37,740 nucleotides of DNA, taken from IMG/VR virus record IMGVR_UViG_2778261277_000009, positions 1 through 37,740 of that record. The stretch is one strand, 5' to 3'. Positions 12,654 through 33,815 of this stretch are shown here, piece by piece. The DNA comes from a virus. Taxonomy: Duplodnaviria > Heunggongvirae > Uroviricota > Caudoviricetes. The notes under the pieces were generated by a model. It did no database searches. It was not told where the DNA came from and worked only from the letters and a program-made list of their open reading frames with translations. Position 1 is the stretch's first letter, and each line of letters opens with the position of its first letter. Made by a program: the position numbers and the translations under genes.

Positions 12654-12670
12654 AATGCTCTAATAAATTT
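12654..12670 (+). promoter_or_regulatory. C1 repressor operator (Op51-like) in the divergent region before c4/icd/ant
   Basis: AATGCTCTAATAAATTT, 16/17 match to the P1 C1 operator consensus ATTGCTCTAATAAATTT. Confidence 0.7.
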
Positions 12671-14410: not shown

Positions 14411-15211
14411 ATGCAACAAACATTCAATGCGGATATGAATATATCAAACCTTCATCAAAATGTCGATCCTTCAACCACTCTGCCCGTTATTTGTGGTGTT
14501 GAAATTACGACCGACCGCGCTGGCCGTTACAACCTTAATGCTCTACACAGAGCGAGCGGACTCGGTGCCCATAAAGCGCCAGCTCAATGGCTAAGAACGC
14601 TGTCAGCTAAACAGCTCATCGAAGAGCTTGAAAAAGAAACTATGCAGAATTGCATAGTTTCGTTCGAAGGCCGTGGCGGCGGCACTTTTGCCCATGAATT
14701 GCTCGCAGTGGAGTACGCTGGTTGGATTTCTCCCGCGTTTCGGCTGAAGGTAAACCAGACATTTATCGACTATCGAGCTGGAAGATTACAACCTGCTATT
14801 CCGAAGAGCCTCCCAGAAGCTCTCCGTTTGGCTGCCGACCTGGCAGAGCAAAAGCAACGGCTGGAGCAAAAAATGCTGATGGATGCACCTAAAGTCGAAT
14901 TCGCCGAACGCGTTGCTACCGCCAGCGGGGTTCTAATCGGCAACTATGCCAAAGTGCTCGGCCTGGGCCAAAACTATCTCTTCACCTGGTTGCGTGATAA
15001 CGGAATTCTGATCGCAACCGGTGAACGCAGGAACGTCCCCAAACAAGAATACATATCCCGTGGGTATTTCACCCTTAAAGAAACCGTGATCGATACAAGC
15101 AATGGAAGCAGGATTTCTTTCACGACTCGTATAACCGGCAAAGGTCAGCAGTGGCTGATGAAGCGATTGCTTGATGCTGGTGTGCTGGTACCTGTCGCGG
15201 CAACGCGCTAA
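14411..15211 (+). CDS. kilA: KilA (KilA-N DNA-binding domain plus KilAC domain)
   Basis: 266-aa ORF, TGGAG SD; C-terminal domain about 65% identical to the Ant C-terminus. Confidence 0.8.
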   Translation: MQQTFNADMNISNLHQNVDPSTTLPVICGVEITTDRAGRYNLNALHRASGLGAHKAPAQWLRTLSAKQLIEELEKETMQNCIVSFEGRGGGTFAHELLAVEYAGWISPAFRLKVNQTFIDYRAGRLQPAIPKSLPEALRLAADLAEQKQRLEQKMLMDAPKVEFAERVATASGVLIGNYAKVLGLGQNYLFTWLRDNGILIATGERRNVPKQEYISRGYFTLKETVIDTSNGSRISFTTRITGKGQQWLMKRLLDAGVLVPVAATR

Positions 15212-15240: not shown

Positions 15241-16086
15241 ATGCTGGCTAAAGTCACTTTCCTGAGCTGTATAACGATGAGCGATTTTACTTTTTCTGGC
15301 TATGAATTGGCCTGCTTTGTAACACACTCCGGTCTATCCCGTAGCGCCGGGCATATCCTGTCGCAATGTGCAAATCTCGCGGCAACAACCAGTGAATACT
15401 TCATTCACAAGCCTCACCGCCTGATCGCGGCAGAAACTGGTTATAGCCAATCAACCGTCGTTCGTGCATTCCGTGAAGCTGTAAACAAAGGAATCCTGTC
15501 TGTAGAGATTGTTATCGGCGATCACCGTGAACGTCGCGCTAACCTGTACCGGTTTACACCATCCTTTTTGGCCTTCGCACAACAAGCCAAAAATGCGCTG
15601 ATTGAAAGCAAATTAAAGATCTCTTCAGCCGCAACCAAGGTTAAAGCTGTTCTCGCTAAGACATTGGCTTTATTTGATTTTTTATCCACACCCCCATGTC
15701 AAAATGATACCCCCTCCCCCTGTCAGGATGACGTGGCAATAAAGAATAAGAAGTCACAAATTAAAAAAACAAAAAGATCAGTTTCCGGCGGTGCCGGAAC
15801 GACCAGACTCAAAAAATTGACTTCATGGATCGCTGAGGCAAAAGCAAAGGCTGACAATCTGCGGTTATCCAAAAAACGCGCTCAAAAACATGAGTTCAAG
15901 CAGAAAGTAGAGGCGGCAGCGCGGAAATATACTTACCTGAAGAACAAGCGTTCTCCTGATATTAGCGGGATATCAAACTTCGATAATCTGCCGCATTGCA
16001 TGACGGTAAACGAAGCTCTTAATGCGGTTTTAGCCAAAAATAAAGATAACGAAAAATGGGGTATACCGGCAGGATTCAGAGGGTGA
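15241..16086 (+). CDS. repL: lytic replication initiator RepL
   Basis: 281-aa ORF directly after kilA; basic C-terminal region; matches P1 RepL in position and size. Alternative start at the ATG at 15277. Confidence 0.75.
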   Translation: MLAKVTFLSCITMSDFTFSGYELACFVTHSGLSRSAGHILSQCANLAATTSEYFIHKPHRLIAAETGYSQSTVVRAFREAVNKGILSVEIVIGDHRERRANLYRFTPSFLAFAQQAKNALIESKLKISSAATKVKAVLAKTLALFDFLSTPPCQNDTPSPCQDDVAIKNKKSQIKKTKRSVSGGAGTTRLKKLTSWIAEAKAKADNLRLSKKRAQKHEFKQKVEAAARKYTYLKNKRSPDISGISNFDNLPHCMTVNEALNAVLAKNKDNEKWGIPAGFRG

Positions 16087-16349
16087 TAGATTGCTCTAAT
16101 CTGGAGTCACCTGGCATTTTCAGTTTGAGGTCGGAGATGCAATCTGATTTTTACAGTTAGCGATCACTTTTTGCAGGGCATCGTTGAGACATATCCATAT
16201 ATAAAAACCCAAAGCCAGATCAAAACTTGTACTGATAAAAACACAGCTAACCATCACAACTTGTAACGTTTATAATGAGTAAAAGAGTGATACATTGCTA
16301 CTTTTACATATTTTTTGACTTAATTCATGGATAGTAATGGAGATGCATA

Positions 16350-17405
16350 ATGACTTATGCTGGCACACAAACAGCAGATAACGCCGGGGATACCATGAAA
16401 TCGTATGCTATTTGGAATAATAAAGGTGGCGTAGGAAAGACCTACTTATCTTTCGCTATGGCCTGTGAATACGCAAGGCAAAATCCAGAAAAGCGTATTA
16501 TTTTTGCAGATATGTGCCCGCAGGCTAACTTATCTGAAATATTGCTCGGCGGTAACGGTACTGGTGCTGCTAACCTCGCGAGCTTAATTCAACAACGAAA
16601 AACTGTCGGTGGGTACTTTGACAGAAGAACTCGCAGCCCCCACATGCTTACCGGTTCAGAAACAAGTTTCTTAATTCATGTCTCTGAAATTAACGGGCAT
16701 GTCCCTGACAATGTATTTTTGATTGCAGGCGACCCAAGCCTGGAAGTTCAGGCGCAAGTAATCAATCAGTTAAGCAGCGTAAACTTACCAGTTGACTCAT
16801 GGAAAAGCATCCACCTGTGGCTACGAGATTTGCTTGTTGCATGTGCACAACAACAAGGTATCGAAGAAACCATTTGCTTTATTGATTGCAACCCCAGTTT
16901 CTCTGCCTATACCGAACTATCACTGATAGCAGCAAATGCAATTATAATACCTTGCTCAAGTGATGGTTCTTCGGCTCGAGCAGTGGATAACCTAAGCCAG
17001 TTGGTTTATGGCGTTGGAGTACAAAACGATTATCGTTCTGTTAACTTTTACGATCGGTGTCAACAGTTTGGTCTAGCGGTTCCTGTCATTCATTCTCTAG
17101 TTTTTAATCGTTCGACAGAGTATGACAAACGAGCAAGTAAAGCGTTTTCGGCAATGTTCGACGAAATCAGGGATAGAGCTGAAAATCTGCGGACGAATAA
17201 ACCAACAGCGTTCCAAGGCGGAAATTTAAAAACGTTTACTGTGCCAGATAACCATTCCGTAGCTATAGTATCTTCCCATCTAGGAAGACCTCTATTTGAT
17301 ATAAAACCAGGCAGATATCAGATCCATGATACTGAGCCACAAATCAATAATGAACCATTAGAAAGATATGGTGCAGCAATCGAACGTCTTGTTCAGAGTT
17401 TATAG
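16350..17405 (+). CDS. orphan ParA/MinD-family ATPase (deviant Walker A), no partner ParB
   Basis: Walker A NNKGGVGKT, A' IFADMCPQ, Walker B CFIDCNPS; alternative start at 16395 (MKSYAIWNNKGGVGKT) with a GGGGA SD; lower GC than the core. Confidence 0.7.
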   Translation: MTYAGTQTADNAGDTMKSYAIWNNKGGVGKTYLSFAMACEYARQNPEKRIIFADMCPQANLSEILLGGNGTGAANLASLIQQRKTVGGYFDRRTRSPHMLTGSETSFLIHVSEINGHVPDNVFLIAGDPSLEVQAQVINQLSSVNLPVDSWKSIHLWLRDLLVACAQQQGIEETICFIDCNPSFSAYTELSLIAANAIIIPCSSDGSSARAVDNLSQLVYGVGVQNDYRSVNFYDRCQQFGLAVPVIHSLVFNRSTEYDKRASKAFSAMFDEIRDRAENLRTNKPTAFQGGNLKTFTVPDNHSVAIVSSHLGRPLFDIKPGRYQIHDTEPQINNEPLERYGAAIERLVQSL

Positions 17406-17428
17406 TGGCTTATCTCACTCATAATGGC

Positions 17429-17465
17429 TAAAAAAAGGCTGCAACAGAGGTTGCAGCCTTTTTTA
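17429..17465. terminator. bidirectional rho-independent terminator between convergent genes
   Basis: A-run, GGCTGCAAC-agag-GTTGCAGCC, T-run. Confidence 0.75.
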
Positions 17466-17475
17466 TAAAATTACA

Positions 17476-17763
17476 TTAACAGACTGGTAGCGATAGTAAA
17501 TTATTATTCCATCGATTGTCTGCATACGTTCTAATAAACTGCCTTCCACCATTACCAGGATTAACAACCCCAACTTCTACACGATTACCTGCATTATCTG
17601 TTACATAGAATGTATGGAGATTATTATCAATAGCATTAATTACCTGCTCAACAGTCCATTTCCCATTGCTAGTATTAAATTGAGGACTTCCCACATGAGT
17701 AATATGCTCATGGATTGATTGCGAGCCGGAGAGGGTAATGCAAGTAATGCGTACATCAGCCAT
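17476..17763 (-). CDS. small DUF3892-like protein
   Basis: Start chosen at the ATG with an AAGGAAG SD (MADVRITCITLSG...NNLLSLPVC, 95 aa); the N-terminal extension in the ORF track looks spurious. Confidence 0.5.
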   Translation of the reverse strand: MADVRITCITLSGSQSIHEHITHVGSPQFNTSNGKWTVEQVINAIDNNLHTFYVTDNAGNRVEVGVVNPGNGGRQFIRTYADNRWNNNLLSLPVC

Positions 17764-18051
17764 ATATACTTCCTTTATTCTATAGATTATAGGAATTGCG
17801 TTGTCCAAAAAACAAACAACACAATAACAATAAAGAAACATACACACAACAAAAACTAACGCTATTTATTGATAGATTTGCCTGATGAATGCTAGCTCTC
17901 TTTGCTGCCTAGCACTCAAACAAATAACAGAAGAAAGCCCCAGATAACATTACGCGTCCTGCAAGACGCTTAACATTAATCTGAGGCCATATCCATGCTT
18001 AGCATATCTAGATTAACCCTCTCCCCTTTTAAGGAGCAAGGAATTTTACTG

Positions 18052-18648
18052 CTATGCCGCCTTTCCAGTTATGGATTCAGCGACAAGAACAACCCCATGC
18101 TTACTTCGATCTGGGTGTTCACTCCATATCTCAGATTCAGGAATACTTACCCCGTCATAGCAAACACGTTCGCCGTCAAACGGGTAATACTGAGCGGCAT
18201 CGGTGTCGAGGATAAACACTTTTAGCTCGGAAGAGCGACGGGCGATGTGTTGCCAAAGAGCTTTTCCACCTTCGTATTGCTCATTATCACTAAGCAAAAC
18301 AACACCAGCTTTTGAGGCTACGGTTTCGTAAACAAAAGTAGCTAAACCGACATCACGGACGGTTCCATCAACCACGATACCTTCAATCTGGGCAACATCG
18401 CTATCCTCCCAGAACTTCCTTACCAGTACGCCTTCAAGCTGCGGGCGACGTTGAAGTTCAAGAGTAGCGACAACCTTATGGCGCATATCACCATCGATAA
18501 CAGAAGGCGCAGCCTCTATTACAGCTGCAAATGGGGTTTTGGAATCCCATATAACCTGGTAAAGCACACCCTGGATGGTAACTCCGTCCAGGATCGAAAA
18601 TCGACGAGCGACAGTACCCGGGGAGTACGACATTGGAATCACAGCCAT
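18052..18648 (-). CDS. hypothetical protein, 198 aa
   Basis: Start chosen at the second ATG (MAVIPMSYSPG) with an AAAGGGGGA SD; operator-like site 18701-18716 upstream. Confidence 0.5.
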   Translation of the reverse strand: MAVIPMSYSPGTVARRFSILDGVTIQGVLYQVIWDSKTPFAAVIEAAPSVIDGDMRHKVVATLELQRRPQLEGVLVRKFWEDSDVAQIEGIVVDGTVRDVGLATFVYETVASKAGVVLLSDNEQYEGGKALWQHIARRSSELKVFILDTDAAQYYPFDGERVCYDGVSIPESEIWSEHPDRSKHGVVLVAESITGKAA

Positions 18649-18776
18649 TTTAGAGTCCCCCTTTAACAGTACAGGCACAAACATCTACCTCAATAATTGT
18701 AGTTTATTAGAACATTAATAATCTAACATAAAACTCCAGACAATGTTATCGATGCATGTTTATATAAAATAGTTAT

Positions 18777-18798
18777 AAAAAAAGCTCCCGCAGGAGCT
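18777..18798 (-). terminator. rho-independent terminator ending the minus-strand late operon
   Basis: GCTCC-cgca-GGAGC hairpin followed on the minus strand by a 7-T run. Confidence 0.65.
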
Positions 18799-18819
18799 TT
18801 AAAATACAAGGGATGACTC

Positions 18820-19329
18820 TTAATCCCACTCAATCCAGTTGTAGACGATACGAAGTGACGGGCGCACAGCGGCAGTCACATCTTCGGTACTAAAGTCGAT
18901 TGCATCACTGTAGATTTTGCAGTCCAACATTTCAATTGTTGTAGCAGCTTTTGTCACAGCGTTAACCCCGGAAGATTTGGATTCAGGGGTAGCAGCCATC
19001 GTGATATCAACATAGTCCTTCGCCGCAATGCGATCTTTAATGAACTGAAGAATATCGCCTTCGATAGTCTCCACGCACTGGACCTGGATTTCCCCAGAGT
19101 TTCGAATTGGACCGTGCTGGTTGAACTTCACACCATTCGGACCATAGTCCTCCACATCCTCGCGGGTCATTTCAGGAATTTGCGACGTGCGAACCAGTAC
19201 GCTGATATCTTCATGGCCTGCAAAAGTGAGCTGGAATTCAGAAGATACCAGTCGTTCGCCTTTGGCCGCGTTGGCAGTATAGCGGCCCTTAATAAATTTA
19301 CGGTTTCCCTTAGTGTTATTGTGCCCCAT
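18820..19329 (-). CDS. virion structural protein (tail tube-like candidate)
   Basis: 169-aa ORF, last gene of the late block; size and composition tube-like. Confidence 0.4.
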   Translation of the reverse strand: MGHNNTKGNRKFIKGRYTANAAKGERLVSSEFQLTFAGHEDISVLVRTSQIPEMTREDVEDYGPNGVKFNQHGPIRNSGEIQVQCVETIEGDILQFIKDRIAAKDYVDITMAATPESKSSGVNAVTKAATTIEMLDCKIYSDAIDFSTEDVTAAVRPSLRIVYNWIEWD

Positions 19330-31780: not shown

Positions 31781-33795
31781 GAGAGCTGTGCTATGGATCT
31801 GTTTGCAGTGGAATTGAAGCCGCGAGCATTGCCTGGGAACCGTTGGGTATGCGTCCGGCGTGGTTTGCTGAGATCGAGCCTTTTCCATCTGCCGTTCTTG
31901 CGCACCGCTGGCCCCATGTCGCCAACCTTGGCGACATGACAAAACTCGCCCAAAAAGTCCAGGCAGGAGAAATTGAAGCCCCTGATATGCTCGTCGGGGG
32001 TACGCCTTGTCAGGCATTCAGTATCGCGGGCTTACGTGGTGGGCTTGATGATGAGCGCGGCGCGCTAACTTTGAAGTATGTGGAGCTTGCAAATGCAATT
32101 GACGACAAACGGGCTGAGTCCTTCCTCAAACCAGCAGTTATCGTCTGGGAAAATGTCCCAGGAGTCCTGTCATCAGCAGATAACGCGTTCGGATGTTTCC
32201 TTGCCGGATTGGCTGGAGAAGATGCGCCATTCGAACCTGGTGATCGACCTGAATCACGAAAAAGTAATACGTTCTGGCGGTGGGATGTCAAAACCGGTTG
32301 CCATGCTCCAAAGTGGCCGCAGTGTGGTTGTATTTATGGACCGCAGCGAAAAGTGGCCTGGAGAATCCTTGATGCCCAATACTTCGGAGTGGCACAACGA
32401 CGCCGACGCGTGTTTGTTGTCGCAAGTGCTCGAACAGACCTCGATCCCGCAACGGTACTTTTTGAGTTCGAAGGCGTGCGCCGGAATATTGCGCCGAGCA
32501 GAGGCGAGGGGAAGGAAACTACCAGATATACTTCAAACATCGCTATCAGAACTTGCGATGATACAAACATAATTGCCATGGCACATGGGCAAGGAGGGGC
32601 TGAGATAAAAACCGATAATTCGGCACCAACTTTGACATGTAACCATGAAGCACCAATTGTATTGCTCGGCGACGGTAGAATGCGCCGTCTTACCCCTGTC
32701 GAATGTGAAAGGCTGCAAGGTTTTCCTGATGGGCATACGTTGATCCCGACGGAAAAGCGTAAAAAAGTTAATTCAGATGAACTGGCATATCTTCGCAATC
32801 ACTATCCAGATTTAAGCGAAGAAGAGGCCGCGATGCTTGCAGCTGACGGACCGCGTTACAAAGCGATCGGCAATAGTATGGCAATACCAGTAATGTGCTG
32901 GATTGGAGATCGGATTACTAAGGCCGTATGTCGGCAGAAAGAAGGAAGTGAAACAAAAGAGCGAAAAGTTAAACCAGCGGCAGAATTCGAACGGTCCATA
33001 TTCAAATGGGCTGGTGGAAAATTTGGTGTTCTGGAACAAATCTTTCACTATTTGCCAGAAGGGAAGCGCCTGATTGAACCTTTCGTTGGTGGCGGAGCTG
33101 TCTTCATGAATGCCGGATACCAGGAAAATCTGCTAAATGATGTGAATGCTGACCTGATTAACTTTTACAAGACTCTGCAACGCGAGGCGCATTCACTTAT
33201 CACTCTGGCACATCGTTTCTTCCTGGACTACAACACCCAGGAGGGATTCCTGGCAGTACGGAATGCGTTTAACAAACAAGTCTATGATGATTTACATCGC
33301 GCAGCGGCGTTTTTGTTCCTGAACCGACATTGTTTTAATGGATTGACGCGCTACAACCAGGCCGGTGAGTTCAATGTCGGTTATGGGAAGTATAAAACTC
33401 CGTATTTCCCATTACAGGAGATGGAAGCCTTCCTCGGTGCGGAAGGGCGGTCTGAGTTTGTATGCGGTGATTTTGCAGCAGTGATTGAAGCTGCCGGAGA
33501 AGGAGATGTCATCTTTTGCGATCCGCCGTATGAACCGCTCCCCAATACAGAGGGGTTTACGAACTATTCCGGTCATGACTTTAAGTTTGAAGAGCAAAAA
33601 CGCCTGGTGTCTCTGTTGACGGATGCTCATCGCCGAGGTGCAAAGGTACTCATTACTAACAGTGGCGCGCCAAACGTCAGAGAACTTTATCAGGACAGTG
33701 GCTTCAGAGTGGAACCTCTCTTTGCCAGACGTTCTGTGTCTTGTAAGGGAGACACTCGTGGTGTTGCTCATGACGTTATGGCTATATTGCTCTAA
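31777..33795 (+). CDS. dmt: bifunctional DNA methyltransferase: N-terminal C5-cytosine MTase fused to C-terminal Dam-like N6-adenine MTase
   Basis: GTG start overlapping the rdgC stop; C5-MTase motifs [11 protein letters not shown] (PCQ), ENVPGV (ENV), QRRRVFVVA; C-terminal FKWAGGK and DPPY motifs. Confidence 0.9.
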
Positions 33796-33815
33796 TAAAT
33801 TTATTAGTGTAATAT
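33786..33815 (+). promoter_or_regulatory. C1 operator (perfect consensus, Op72-like) overlapping a sigma70-like promoter toward the tRNA/ban region
   Basis: ATTGCTCTAATAAATTT exact (33786-33802), followed by a partial inverted half-site; -35 TTGCTC, 17-nt spacer, -10 TAATAT (33810-33815). Confidence 0.7.

Follow-up and report, generated by a model that had tools for sequence, protein, structure and literature searches.

Genes for DUF3892 proteins have been described in operons with CapH/CapP (Lau et al., bioRxiv 10.1101/2022.04.27.489752), and a defence role for the family was predicted by Burroughs & Aravind (2020), as credited by Lau et al. The Lipocone preprint treats the DUF3892 domain, which it reports fused to Min-Wnt effectors, as a possible RNA or ribosome sensor, and proposes for it a dsRBD/HPF-like fold. 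We found no experiment on any DUF3892 protein in the literature. The hot spots of P2 and P4 (Rousset et al. 2022, PMC9122126) offer a second point of comparison, since these are fixed slots that hold alternative low-GC cargo cassettes, each with promoters and terminators of its own.

The DUF3892 gene analysed here resembles those of the CapH/CapP "DUF3892 systems" in encoding a stand-alone protein of about 95 aa that matches the family HMM over its full length. It differs from them in lacking an XRE-HTH or M78 regulator in its surroundings, in residing on a P1-like phage-plasmid beside an orphan ParA-like gene, and in being preceded by low-complexity DNA that is private to its lineage. As in the P2/P4 hot spots, a fixed slot, here the interval between repL and bplB, receives alternative low-GC cassettes with their own candidate promoters and terminators, and relatives of the cargo lie beside DUF4238, PD-T7-1 and PDC-S15, which are validated or candidate defence genes. 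Unlike the cargo of those hot spots, neither gene of the present cassette matches a PADLOC model. Here, we establish the gene, the boundaries of the cassette that carries it, its terminator, its family membership and the statistics of its neighbourhoods in other genomes, and we infer a promoter, an expression state and a role in defence.

The window, by which we mean the whole stretch of 37,740 nucleotides that was analysed (IMG/VR record IMGVR_UViG_2778261277_000009), contains in order kilA (14411-15211), repL (15241-16086), bplB (18820-19329, minus strand) and tail genes, a set that identifies it as a P1-like phage-plasmid. The plasmid NZ_CP077443.1 of E. coli O111:H8 SF4-1 is 100% identical to it across the cassette and its flanks. 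When the window was compared by blastn with phage 673R5, P1 MH422554 and RCS47, homology ended at position 16177 and restarted at 17929, and the segment between these points is gained or lost as a single piece among P1-like elements (Table 1). The junctions (16177/16178 and 17928/17929) possess neither a target-site duplication nor inverted repeats. The locus is an ordinary, swappable accessory-gene cassette in a P1-like phage-plasmid.

Table 1. Coordinates of the features of the DUF3892 locus and its surroundings in the window
Feature	Position	Strand	Basis or remark
Accessory cassette, 1,751 bp	16178-17928	none	ParA-like gene, terminator, DUF3892 gene and upstream region
A/C-rich upstream region of the ParA-like gene	16201-16276	+	A+C 0.77; two repeats, then TATAAT
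Orphan ParA-like deviant-Walker-A ATPase, 351 aa	16350-17405	+	Pfam AAA_31 and CbiA
Bidirectional intrinsic terminator, common to the two convergent genes	17431-17464	none	15-bp perfect inverted repeat
DUF3892 protein gene, 95 aa	17476-17763	-	ORF and Pfam PF13031 match
Shine-Dalgarno sequence AAGGAAG	17769-17775	-	5 nt before the ATG, read from the sequence
Candidate sigma-70 -10 element, perfect TATAAT	17786-17791	-	Promoter scan; -35-like TTGTTT at 17810-17815, 18-nt spacer
Low-complexity tract	17805-17860	none	Plus strand A/C-rich, sense strand of the gene T/G-rich
hok/mok/sok 5' remnant, toxin ORF absent	17929-18018	+	Right-hand cassette junction
198-aa gene (RefSeq; 210 aa from an upstream ATG), outside the cassette	18052-18684	-	phrog_7522, unknown function

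Among P1-like elements, the interval between repL and bplB (16087-18819 in the window) serves as a cargo slot, for which at least five different fillings are seen. Reference P1 carries rlfA (DUF3800)/rlfB/pmgF at this position; other P1-like elements carry hok/mok, ISEc46 together with the 198-aa gene, or the 198-aa gene by itself, and the window carries the ParA-like, DUF3892 and 198-aa genes. Forty-two plasmids in PLSDB possess the cassette, as do 39 of 5,426 complete E. coli genomes, in which every copy is plasmid-borne. Since repL of the window type occurs in 517 of the same 5,426 genomes, the cassette is present in 7.5% of the repL-positive ones (39/517). Three P1-like contigs from IMG/VR match the window at 99.7% identity over the cassette and at 98.2-98.3% over the adjacent repL segment. 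The nearest relatives of the ParA-like gene (85-90% protein identity) and of the DUF3892 gene (73%) have no flanking DNA in common with the window, and the source of the cassette was therefore not found. The comparison of copies hints that recombination may have spread the cassette among P1-like backbones.

To the right of the cassette lies a hok remnant of about 90 bp, common to the window, RCS47 and 673R5, which is 95% identical to P1 MH422554 and 87-89% identical to Rac-type prophages (87-95% overall). It is not an intact hok/sok type I toxin-antitoxin locus: the Rfam sok model scores 23.7 bits there, against a gathering score of 59, and the ORFs of the window include none that is Hok-like. 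Beyond the remnant, the 198-aa gene is found without the cassette in RCS47, 673R5 and SJ46. The sequence-only reading had joined this gene to the ParA-like and DUF3892 genes in a three-gene block of lower GC. The lower GC is borne out (0.365-0.44 in the cassette region, compared with 0.47-0.53 in the backbone), but the single block is not, since the cassette boundaries exclude the 198/210-aa gene. Across genomes, too, the proposed block divides into two independent units, with the 198-aa gene in 127 and the cassette in 39 of the 5,426 E. coli genomes.

The DUF3892 gene is convergent with the ParA-like gene, as had been noted from the sequence, and the two share the terminator between them. This element is flanked by an A-run and a T-run, and its RNA fold has an energy of -30.4 kcal/mol (z -4.7). 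The assignment of the 95-aa product to DUF3892 likewise holds, and it is already in public annotation: RefSeq labels the product "DUF3892 domain-containing protein" on the 42 PLSDB plasmids. The ORF encodes the protein that had been quoted, and residues 5-93 align to positions 1-71 of the 71-position PF13031 profile (E 1.7e-15, 57.7 bits against a gathering cutoff of 22.3). The protein also matches phrog_8224 (function not known) at E 1e-37. Its start is supported by comparison, as M[ATV]D at this ATG is the start of all homologues and DNA homology with other DUF3892 loci begins exactly at the ATG. A 123-aa extension from an upstream GTG would run through the low-complexity tract; the M[ATV]D starts of homologues, the DNA homology from the ATG and the closely placed Shine-Dalgarno sequence leave it unsupported.

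We collected 112 homologues of the 95-aa protein, at 40-98% identity. The family as a whole comprises 2,135 clusters at 50% identity, nearly all of them stand-alone proteins of 85-105 aa. Its longer members contain DUF3892 alone, at times in tandem through a few duplications, so that domain fusions yield no functional hint. The motifs of the CapH/CapP-associated proteins are kept in the window protein, which possesses every family-wide residue (C8, H18-E19, I21-T22-H23-x-G25, D82, N88-L89-L90 and the C-terminal Cys). Conservation of these residues, measured over 115 sequences that represent the 50%-identity clusters, is 75-96%, with C8, H18, E19, H23 and C95 at 75-88%.

Cys8 and Cys95 are gained and lost together among the 115 representatives (odds ratio 20.6, Fisher p 8e-7, uncorrected for phylogeny), whereas His18 and His23 are conserved without co-variation. 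The pairing of the cysteines suggests a disulfide or a shared metal site that would join the two termini. An AF2 model of the protein (pLDDT 85, pTM 0.71) is mostly beta, with a single helix at residues 38-46. A Foldseek search of PDB and BFVD returned nothing below E 0.1, and thus no significant structural relative, and a profile search of PDB sequences with DUF3892 returned noise.

Type Ib plasmid partition cassettes consist of a small ParA, a small DNA-binding adaptor and repeats. The locus resembles them in that a deviant Walker A ATPase lies beside a small gene and a tract of repeat-like character, on a plasmid of low copy number. A second partition system, in which the ParA-like ATPase would act with DUF3892 as its adaptor and the tract as its centromere, has this arrangement in its favour, as the small gene and the degenerate repeat adjoin the ParA-like gene. 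The two genes are nevertheless convergent and form no operon, so that they are not co-transcribed as the genes of type Ib cassettes are, the 351-aa ATPase belongs to a solitary family, and no DNA-binding fold is recognised in DUF3892 such as the adaptor would have. Outside P1-like elements the two genes occur together at none of 116 loci (105 DUF3892 and 11 ParA-like), which rules out a conserved partnership and largely refutes the partition reading. P1-type elements already possess parA/parB/parS, and DUF3892 homologues accompany HTH/M78 regulators or defence genes instead. We consider a partition role very improbable.

The family of the ParA-like protein is very large and strongly conserved. 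Among 4,523 matches, many of them 55-60% identical across phyla, the homologues are always solitary, without ParB. They include genes directly after the cI repressor in integrated prophages and phages (Pseudomonas phage phi297, a Serratia prophage), a gene between IS elements in Oleidesulfovibrio, and genes in Klebsiella, Salmonella and Acinetobacter that make up most of the cargo of plasmids of 4-9 kb; high-copy ColE1-type plasmids carry them as well, which likewise weighs against partition. The nearest solved structure, 3pg5, is labelled "uncharacterized protein". For both the ParA-like and the DUF3892 gene, DNA similarity to the nearest relatives stops at the limits of the coding sequence; from these comparisons, we regard the two genes as unrelated and of independent origin.

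The sequence-only reading had also drawn attention to a low-complexity, A/C-rich tract upstream of the DUF3892 gene. On the plus strand this tract is real, with 51 of its 56 nucleotides being A or C (37 A, 14 C, 4 T, 1 G), and it is the most extreme A+C stretch of the window: the top 60-nt window of the 37.7 kb lies there (0.88, against a mean of 0.50 and a standard deviation of 0.074; the next-highest is 0.78), as do both of the longest pure A/C runs. The compositional oddity is well beyond chance. Tandem Repeats Finder reports a degenerate 22-nt unit present 2.3 times with 79% matches. A search for known RNA families gave no match above threshold, the chance ones being CrcZ at 15 bits, which arises from the CA-rich composition, and sok at the hok remnant. 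Among the intergenic stretches of this region, the one ahead of the ParA-like gene ranks second in A/C richness; there, imperfect 34-bp direct repeats at 16201-16231 and 16235-16265 (repeat families D6 and D10, both with 34-nt spacing) read ATAAAAACCCA...ATCAAAACTTGTA and ATAAAAACACA...ATCACAACTTGTA. The candidate promoter of that gene is built like the one of the DUF3892 gene: the TATAAT at 16271-16276 is perfect, the -35 is poor, and the DNA upstream is A-rich.

The DUF3892 gene lies on the minus strand, and the tract is consequently T/G-rich in the sense of the gene (GTTAGTTTTTGTTGTGTGTATGTTTCTTTATTGTTATTGTGTTGTTTGTTTTTTGG); any transcript of the gene would contain it as U/G, never as A/C. 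In addition, the best candidate -10 element, a perfect TATAAT located 22 nt before the ATG and invariant in P1-like copies, is downstream of the tract. The strand disposes of the proposal that the tract is an unstructured, A/C-rich translational enhancer, and with this candidate promoter, from which the tract would not be transcribed, its description as a leader is unsupported. The candidate promoter matches the -10 consensus at 6/6 and the -35 consensus at 3/6 positions, a score short of the consensus-scan threshold, and its best -35, TTGTTT, falls inside the tract. A transcript starting near 17779 would have a leader of about 16 nt containing the Shine-Dalgarno sequence, and the tract would then span from -35 to about -82. 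Its position upstream of a perfect TATAAT makes promoter-upstream DNA a more likely role than leader, and it may be protein-binding or promoter-modulating DNA. Here the closest parallel is the UP element or curved T-tract DNA of sigma-70 promoters, which presents the same T-rich non-template stretch above a perfect -10 and a weak -35; the window tract differs from an UP element in being T/G-rich rather than A/T-rich and in having no match to the UP consensus. The general caution from this tract is that strand and promoter position have to be checked before composition is read as a feature of an mRNA.

A 26-bp imperfect palindrome at 17770-17795 (TTCCTATAATCTATAGAATAAAGGAA, minus strand) extends over both the Shine-Dalgarno sequence and the -10 hexamer and could serve as an operator. 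A hairpin of its RNA that would sequester the Shine-Dalgarno sequence was rejected, since it folds no better than shuffled sequence. An alternative promoter pair, TGGACA-19-TAGAAT, would exclude the Shine-Dalgarno sequence, and its -35 is destroyed in other P1-like haplotypes.

A scan of the window that allowed up to 3 mismatches found no P1 C1 operator (ATTGCTCTAATAAATTT) near the DUF3892 or the ParA-like gene; matches occur only at 12654, 14325, 30510, 33786 and 33797. These five have at most 2 mismatches, compared with a chance expectation of 0.2 matches. One is located ahead of kilA-repL, and two overlap in inverted orientation at 33786-33813. The DUF3892 gene does not belong to a C1-repressed operon, and control by C1 was discarded. 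Since no C1 operator is near, expression in the plasmid-prophage state would be expected, and for the ParA-like gene as well it is plausible from the arrangement of sites.

A different reading of the tract places it in a long 5' UTR, where its U/G-rich RNA would pair with the ribosome-binding site and tune the translation of DUF3892. The transcript might start at a weak promoter-like pair, TTGAGT/TAGCAT, at 17919-17889, or enter by read-through from either the hok/sok remnant or the 198-aa gene, and no convincing terminator lies between the stop of the 198-aa gene (18052) and the tract. For the upstream RNA of 191 nt the predicted fold has an energy of -52.3 kcal/mol (z -3.2), and in it UUUCUUUAUU of the tract pairs with AAUAAAGGAA, which contains the Shine-Dalgarno sequence. 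A U-rich tract will, however, pair with any purine-rich Shine-Dalgarno sequence through composition alone, and over the local 71 nt the RNA folds no better than shuffled sequence (z +0.5). The well-placed TATAAT offers the simpler short leader. Furthermore, the proximal part of the tract is the most variable segment, and the tract is missing at all other DUF3892 loci examined. This reading seems to us rather unlikely.

The sequence-only reading had named a lack of conservation of the tract in relatives as one of two findings that would count against it, and this one was observed: the tract is not conserved outside near-identical P1-like copies. Nothing similar was found upstream of homologues in 14 genera or contexts, a comparison that took in Raoultella, Rahnella, Mixta, E. 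coli, Salmonella, Morganella and Enterobacter as well as more distant genera, and by blastn against plasmids the 165-bp upstream region is restricted to the 42 P1-like plasmids with the cassette. Among these copies it is 95.2-99.4% identical, compared with 98.6-99.9% for the whole cassette, of which no other part varies as much. In an alignment of ten P1-like copies, the coding sequences vary at 1.3-1.4 sites per 100 nt, and positions 17764-17799 have one variable site; six substitutions fall in 17800-17825, where one plasmid also has a 6-bp TTATTG slippage insertion. The proximal third of the tract is a hot spot of substitution and indels, and the promoter spacer varies too, while the distal part of the tract (17826-17860) and the -10/Shine-Dalgarno region are essentially invariant. 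The tract does not behave as a phase-variable one, as seven of seven IMG/VR copies match its length in the window and one plasmid carries the 6-bp insertion, nor does it consist of the perfect tandem repeats of varying copy number that characterize simple-sequence-repeat promoters. The tract is lineage-private, partly fast-evolving DNA that most likely precedes the gene's promoter.

In another reading, the tract would be a functionless scar, left by replication slippage or an assembly junction, and the DUF3892 gene a passenger without benefit. The degenerate 22-nt duplication, the slippage variant, the lower identity of the upstream 165 bp, the private nature of the tract and the low frequency of the cassette among repL-positive E. 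coli genomes all accord with this. Against it, the coding sequence is intact with few changes in every copy examined, and the family is strongly conserved, with a mean column identity of 65% across phyla. The invariance of the distal 35 bp of the tract and of the -10/Shine-Dalgarno region also speaks against a mere scar, as does the better conservation of the cassette relative to the flanking repL within the same contigs. We judge a scar with a passenger gene to be unlikely.

Evidence on the function of DUF3892 comes from its neighbourhoods in other genomes. At 80 loci from species-representative genomes, an M78 (IrrE/ImmA-type) peptidase was present at 35, an XRE HTH gene at 36 and both at 28; these genes are always upstream of DUF3892 and mostly divergent from it, and no conserved downstream partner was found at the 80 loci. 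The counts agree with the CapH/CapP-DUF3892 operons of Lau et al. In the window there is no HTH/M78 regulator, and none of the neighbouring ParA-like, 198-aa, repL and kilA genes encodes an M78 domain; the window is thus not a CapH/CapP-type regulated system, and the regulatory logic of other phyla does not transfer to it.

Enterobacterial DUF3892 genes are instead solitary, in cargo slots of prophages, satellites, ICEs or islands. A copy in a lambdoid nin region adjoins a DpdB/DndB-like gene, in place of which the corresponding slot in Enterobacter contains NA37 and a 475-aa gene. At the end of a Morganella prophage, DUF3892 is convergent with DUF4238, and a DUF4238 gene protects against T7 (Rousset et al. 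2022, PMC9122126). On a Salmonella island, DUF3892 lies 26 nt upstream of the gene for an FRG protein (PADLOC candidate PDC-S15), with PD-T7-1 1.9 kb beyond the latter. Association of this kind is weak as evidence, since such slots hold non-defence cargo too, and PADLOC-DB v2 contains no match to the DUF3892, ParA-like or 210-aa proteins at E<=1. By association and from the published prediction, DUF3892 is most likely a small, prophage-expressed conflict or defence factor.

Two of these loci have further features. In Salmonella enterica, a perfect (GAAGTTT)n repeat lies about 50 bp upstream of the DUF3892 start, with 7, 4, 3, 5 and 4 copies in five genomes whose DUF3892 proteins are identical, and it could serve as simple-sequence-repeat tuning of a defence operon. 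The closest homologue outside P1-like elements (73% identity) lies at an E. coli satellite/prophage junction. On one side of this gene is a satellite-like module (AlpA, a D5-type primase, SSB, capsid E and a decoration protein), and on the other a truncated capsid E gene is followed by lambda-type tail genes, so that the locus looks like a satellite/prophage hybrid.

The same neighbourhoods can be read in the opposite sense, with DUF3892 as a counter-defence or host-takeover factor that aids the phage; it might, for instance, inhibit an immune or stress pathway of the host. The protein is small and stand-alone and is borne by temperate phages, satellites and ICEs; anti-defence genes, too, occupy hot spots beside defence genes, and regulation by M78/HTH pairs extends to early genes of mobile elements. 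Most homologues, though, are chromosomal genes of free-living bacteria from many phyla, and the conserved HTH-M78-DUF3892 unit is found without other conserved phage genes around it. Moreover, a tblastn search of 50,697 deposited phage genomes with the DUF3892 protein gave no match, a result that also weighs against the defence reading favoured here. We regard a counter-defence function as distinctly improbable.

We give about an even chance to a single explanation that combines an ordinary accessory cassette, a promoter-upstream tract and a DUF3892 conflict or defence factor expressed in the prophage. An accessory ("moron") cassette occupies the variable repL-bplB slot, and its two unrelated, independently transcribed genes converge on one bidirectional terminator. 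The DUF3892 gene would be driven from its own Shine-Dalgarno sequence and candidate sigma-70 promoter, with its perfect TATAAT and weak -35, and in the plasmid-prophage state it would be expressed because no C1 operator is near. The T/G-rich sense strand of the tract would cover the -35 position and the DNA above it and, if active at all, would most likely be promoter-upstream DNA of the generic T-rich kind, similar to an UP element or a target of the curved/H-NS type, and not a leader that is translated or enhances translation. Where the lysogen competes with other phages or mobile elements, the DUF3892 protein would most likely act on its behalf. Compact, mostly beta and, in this reading, held by the co-varying Cys8/Cys95 pair, the protein would bind a cellular or invader target and thereby block infection.

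A broader proposal, to which we assign a small probability, is that DUF3892 may be a stand-alone, single-gene anti-phage or anti-mobile-element factor of temperate elements. Its level would depend on one of two controls: HTH/M78 regulators that respond to damage, or low-complexity DNA upstream of the promoter that mutates readily. The T/G tract of P1-like plasmids and the 3-7-copy GAAGTTT repeat of Salmonella would exemplify the second. If this were true, a costly effector clamped by its Cys8-Cys95 pair would have a heritable, tunable on/off level.

For P1-like elements, the analysis reveals the repL-bplB interval as a cargo slot that accepts a range of alternative contents. For the DUF3892 family, it provides a genetically tractable setting, in that natural P1-like phage-plasmids of E. 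coli, otherwise near-identical, differ in whether they carry the 1.75-kb cassette. With this difference, the predicted part of DUF3892 proteins in anti-phage conflict, as published, could be tested cleanly.
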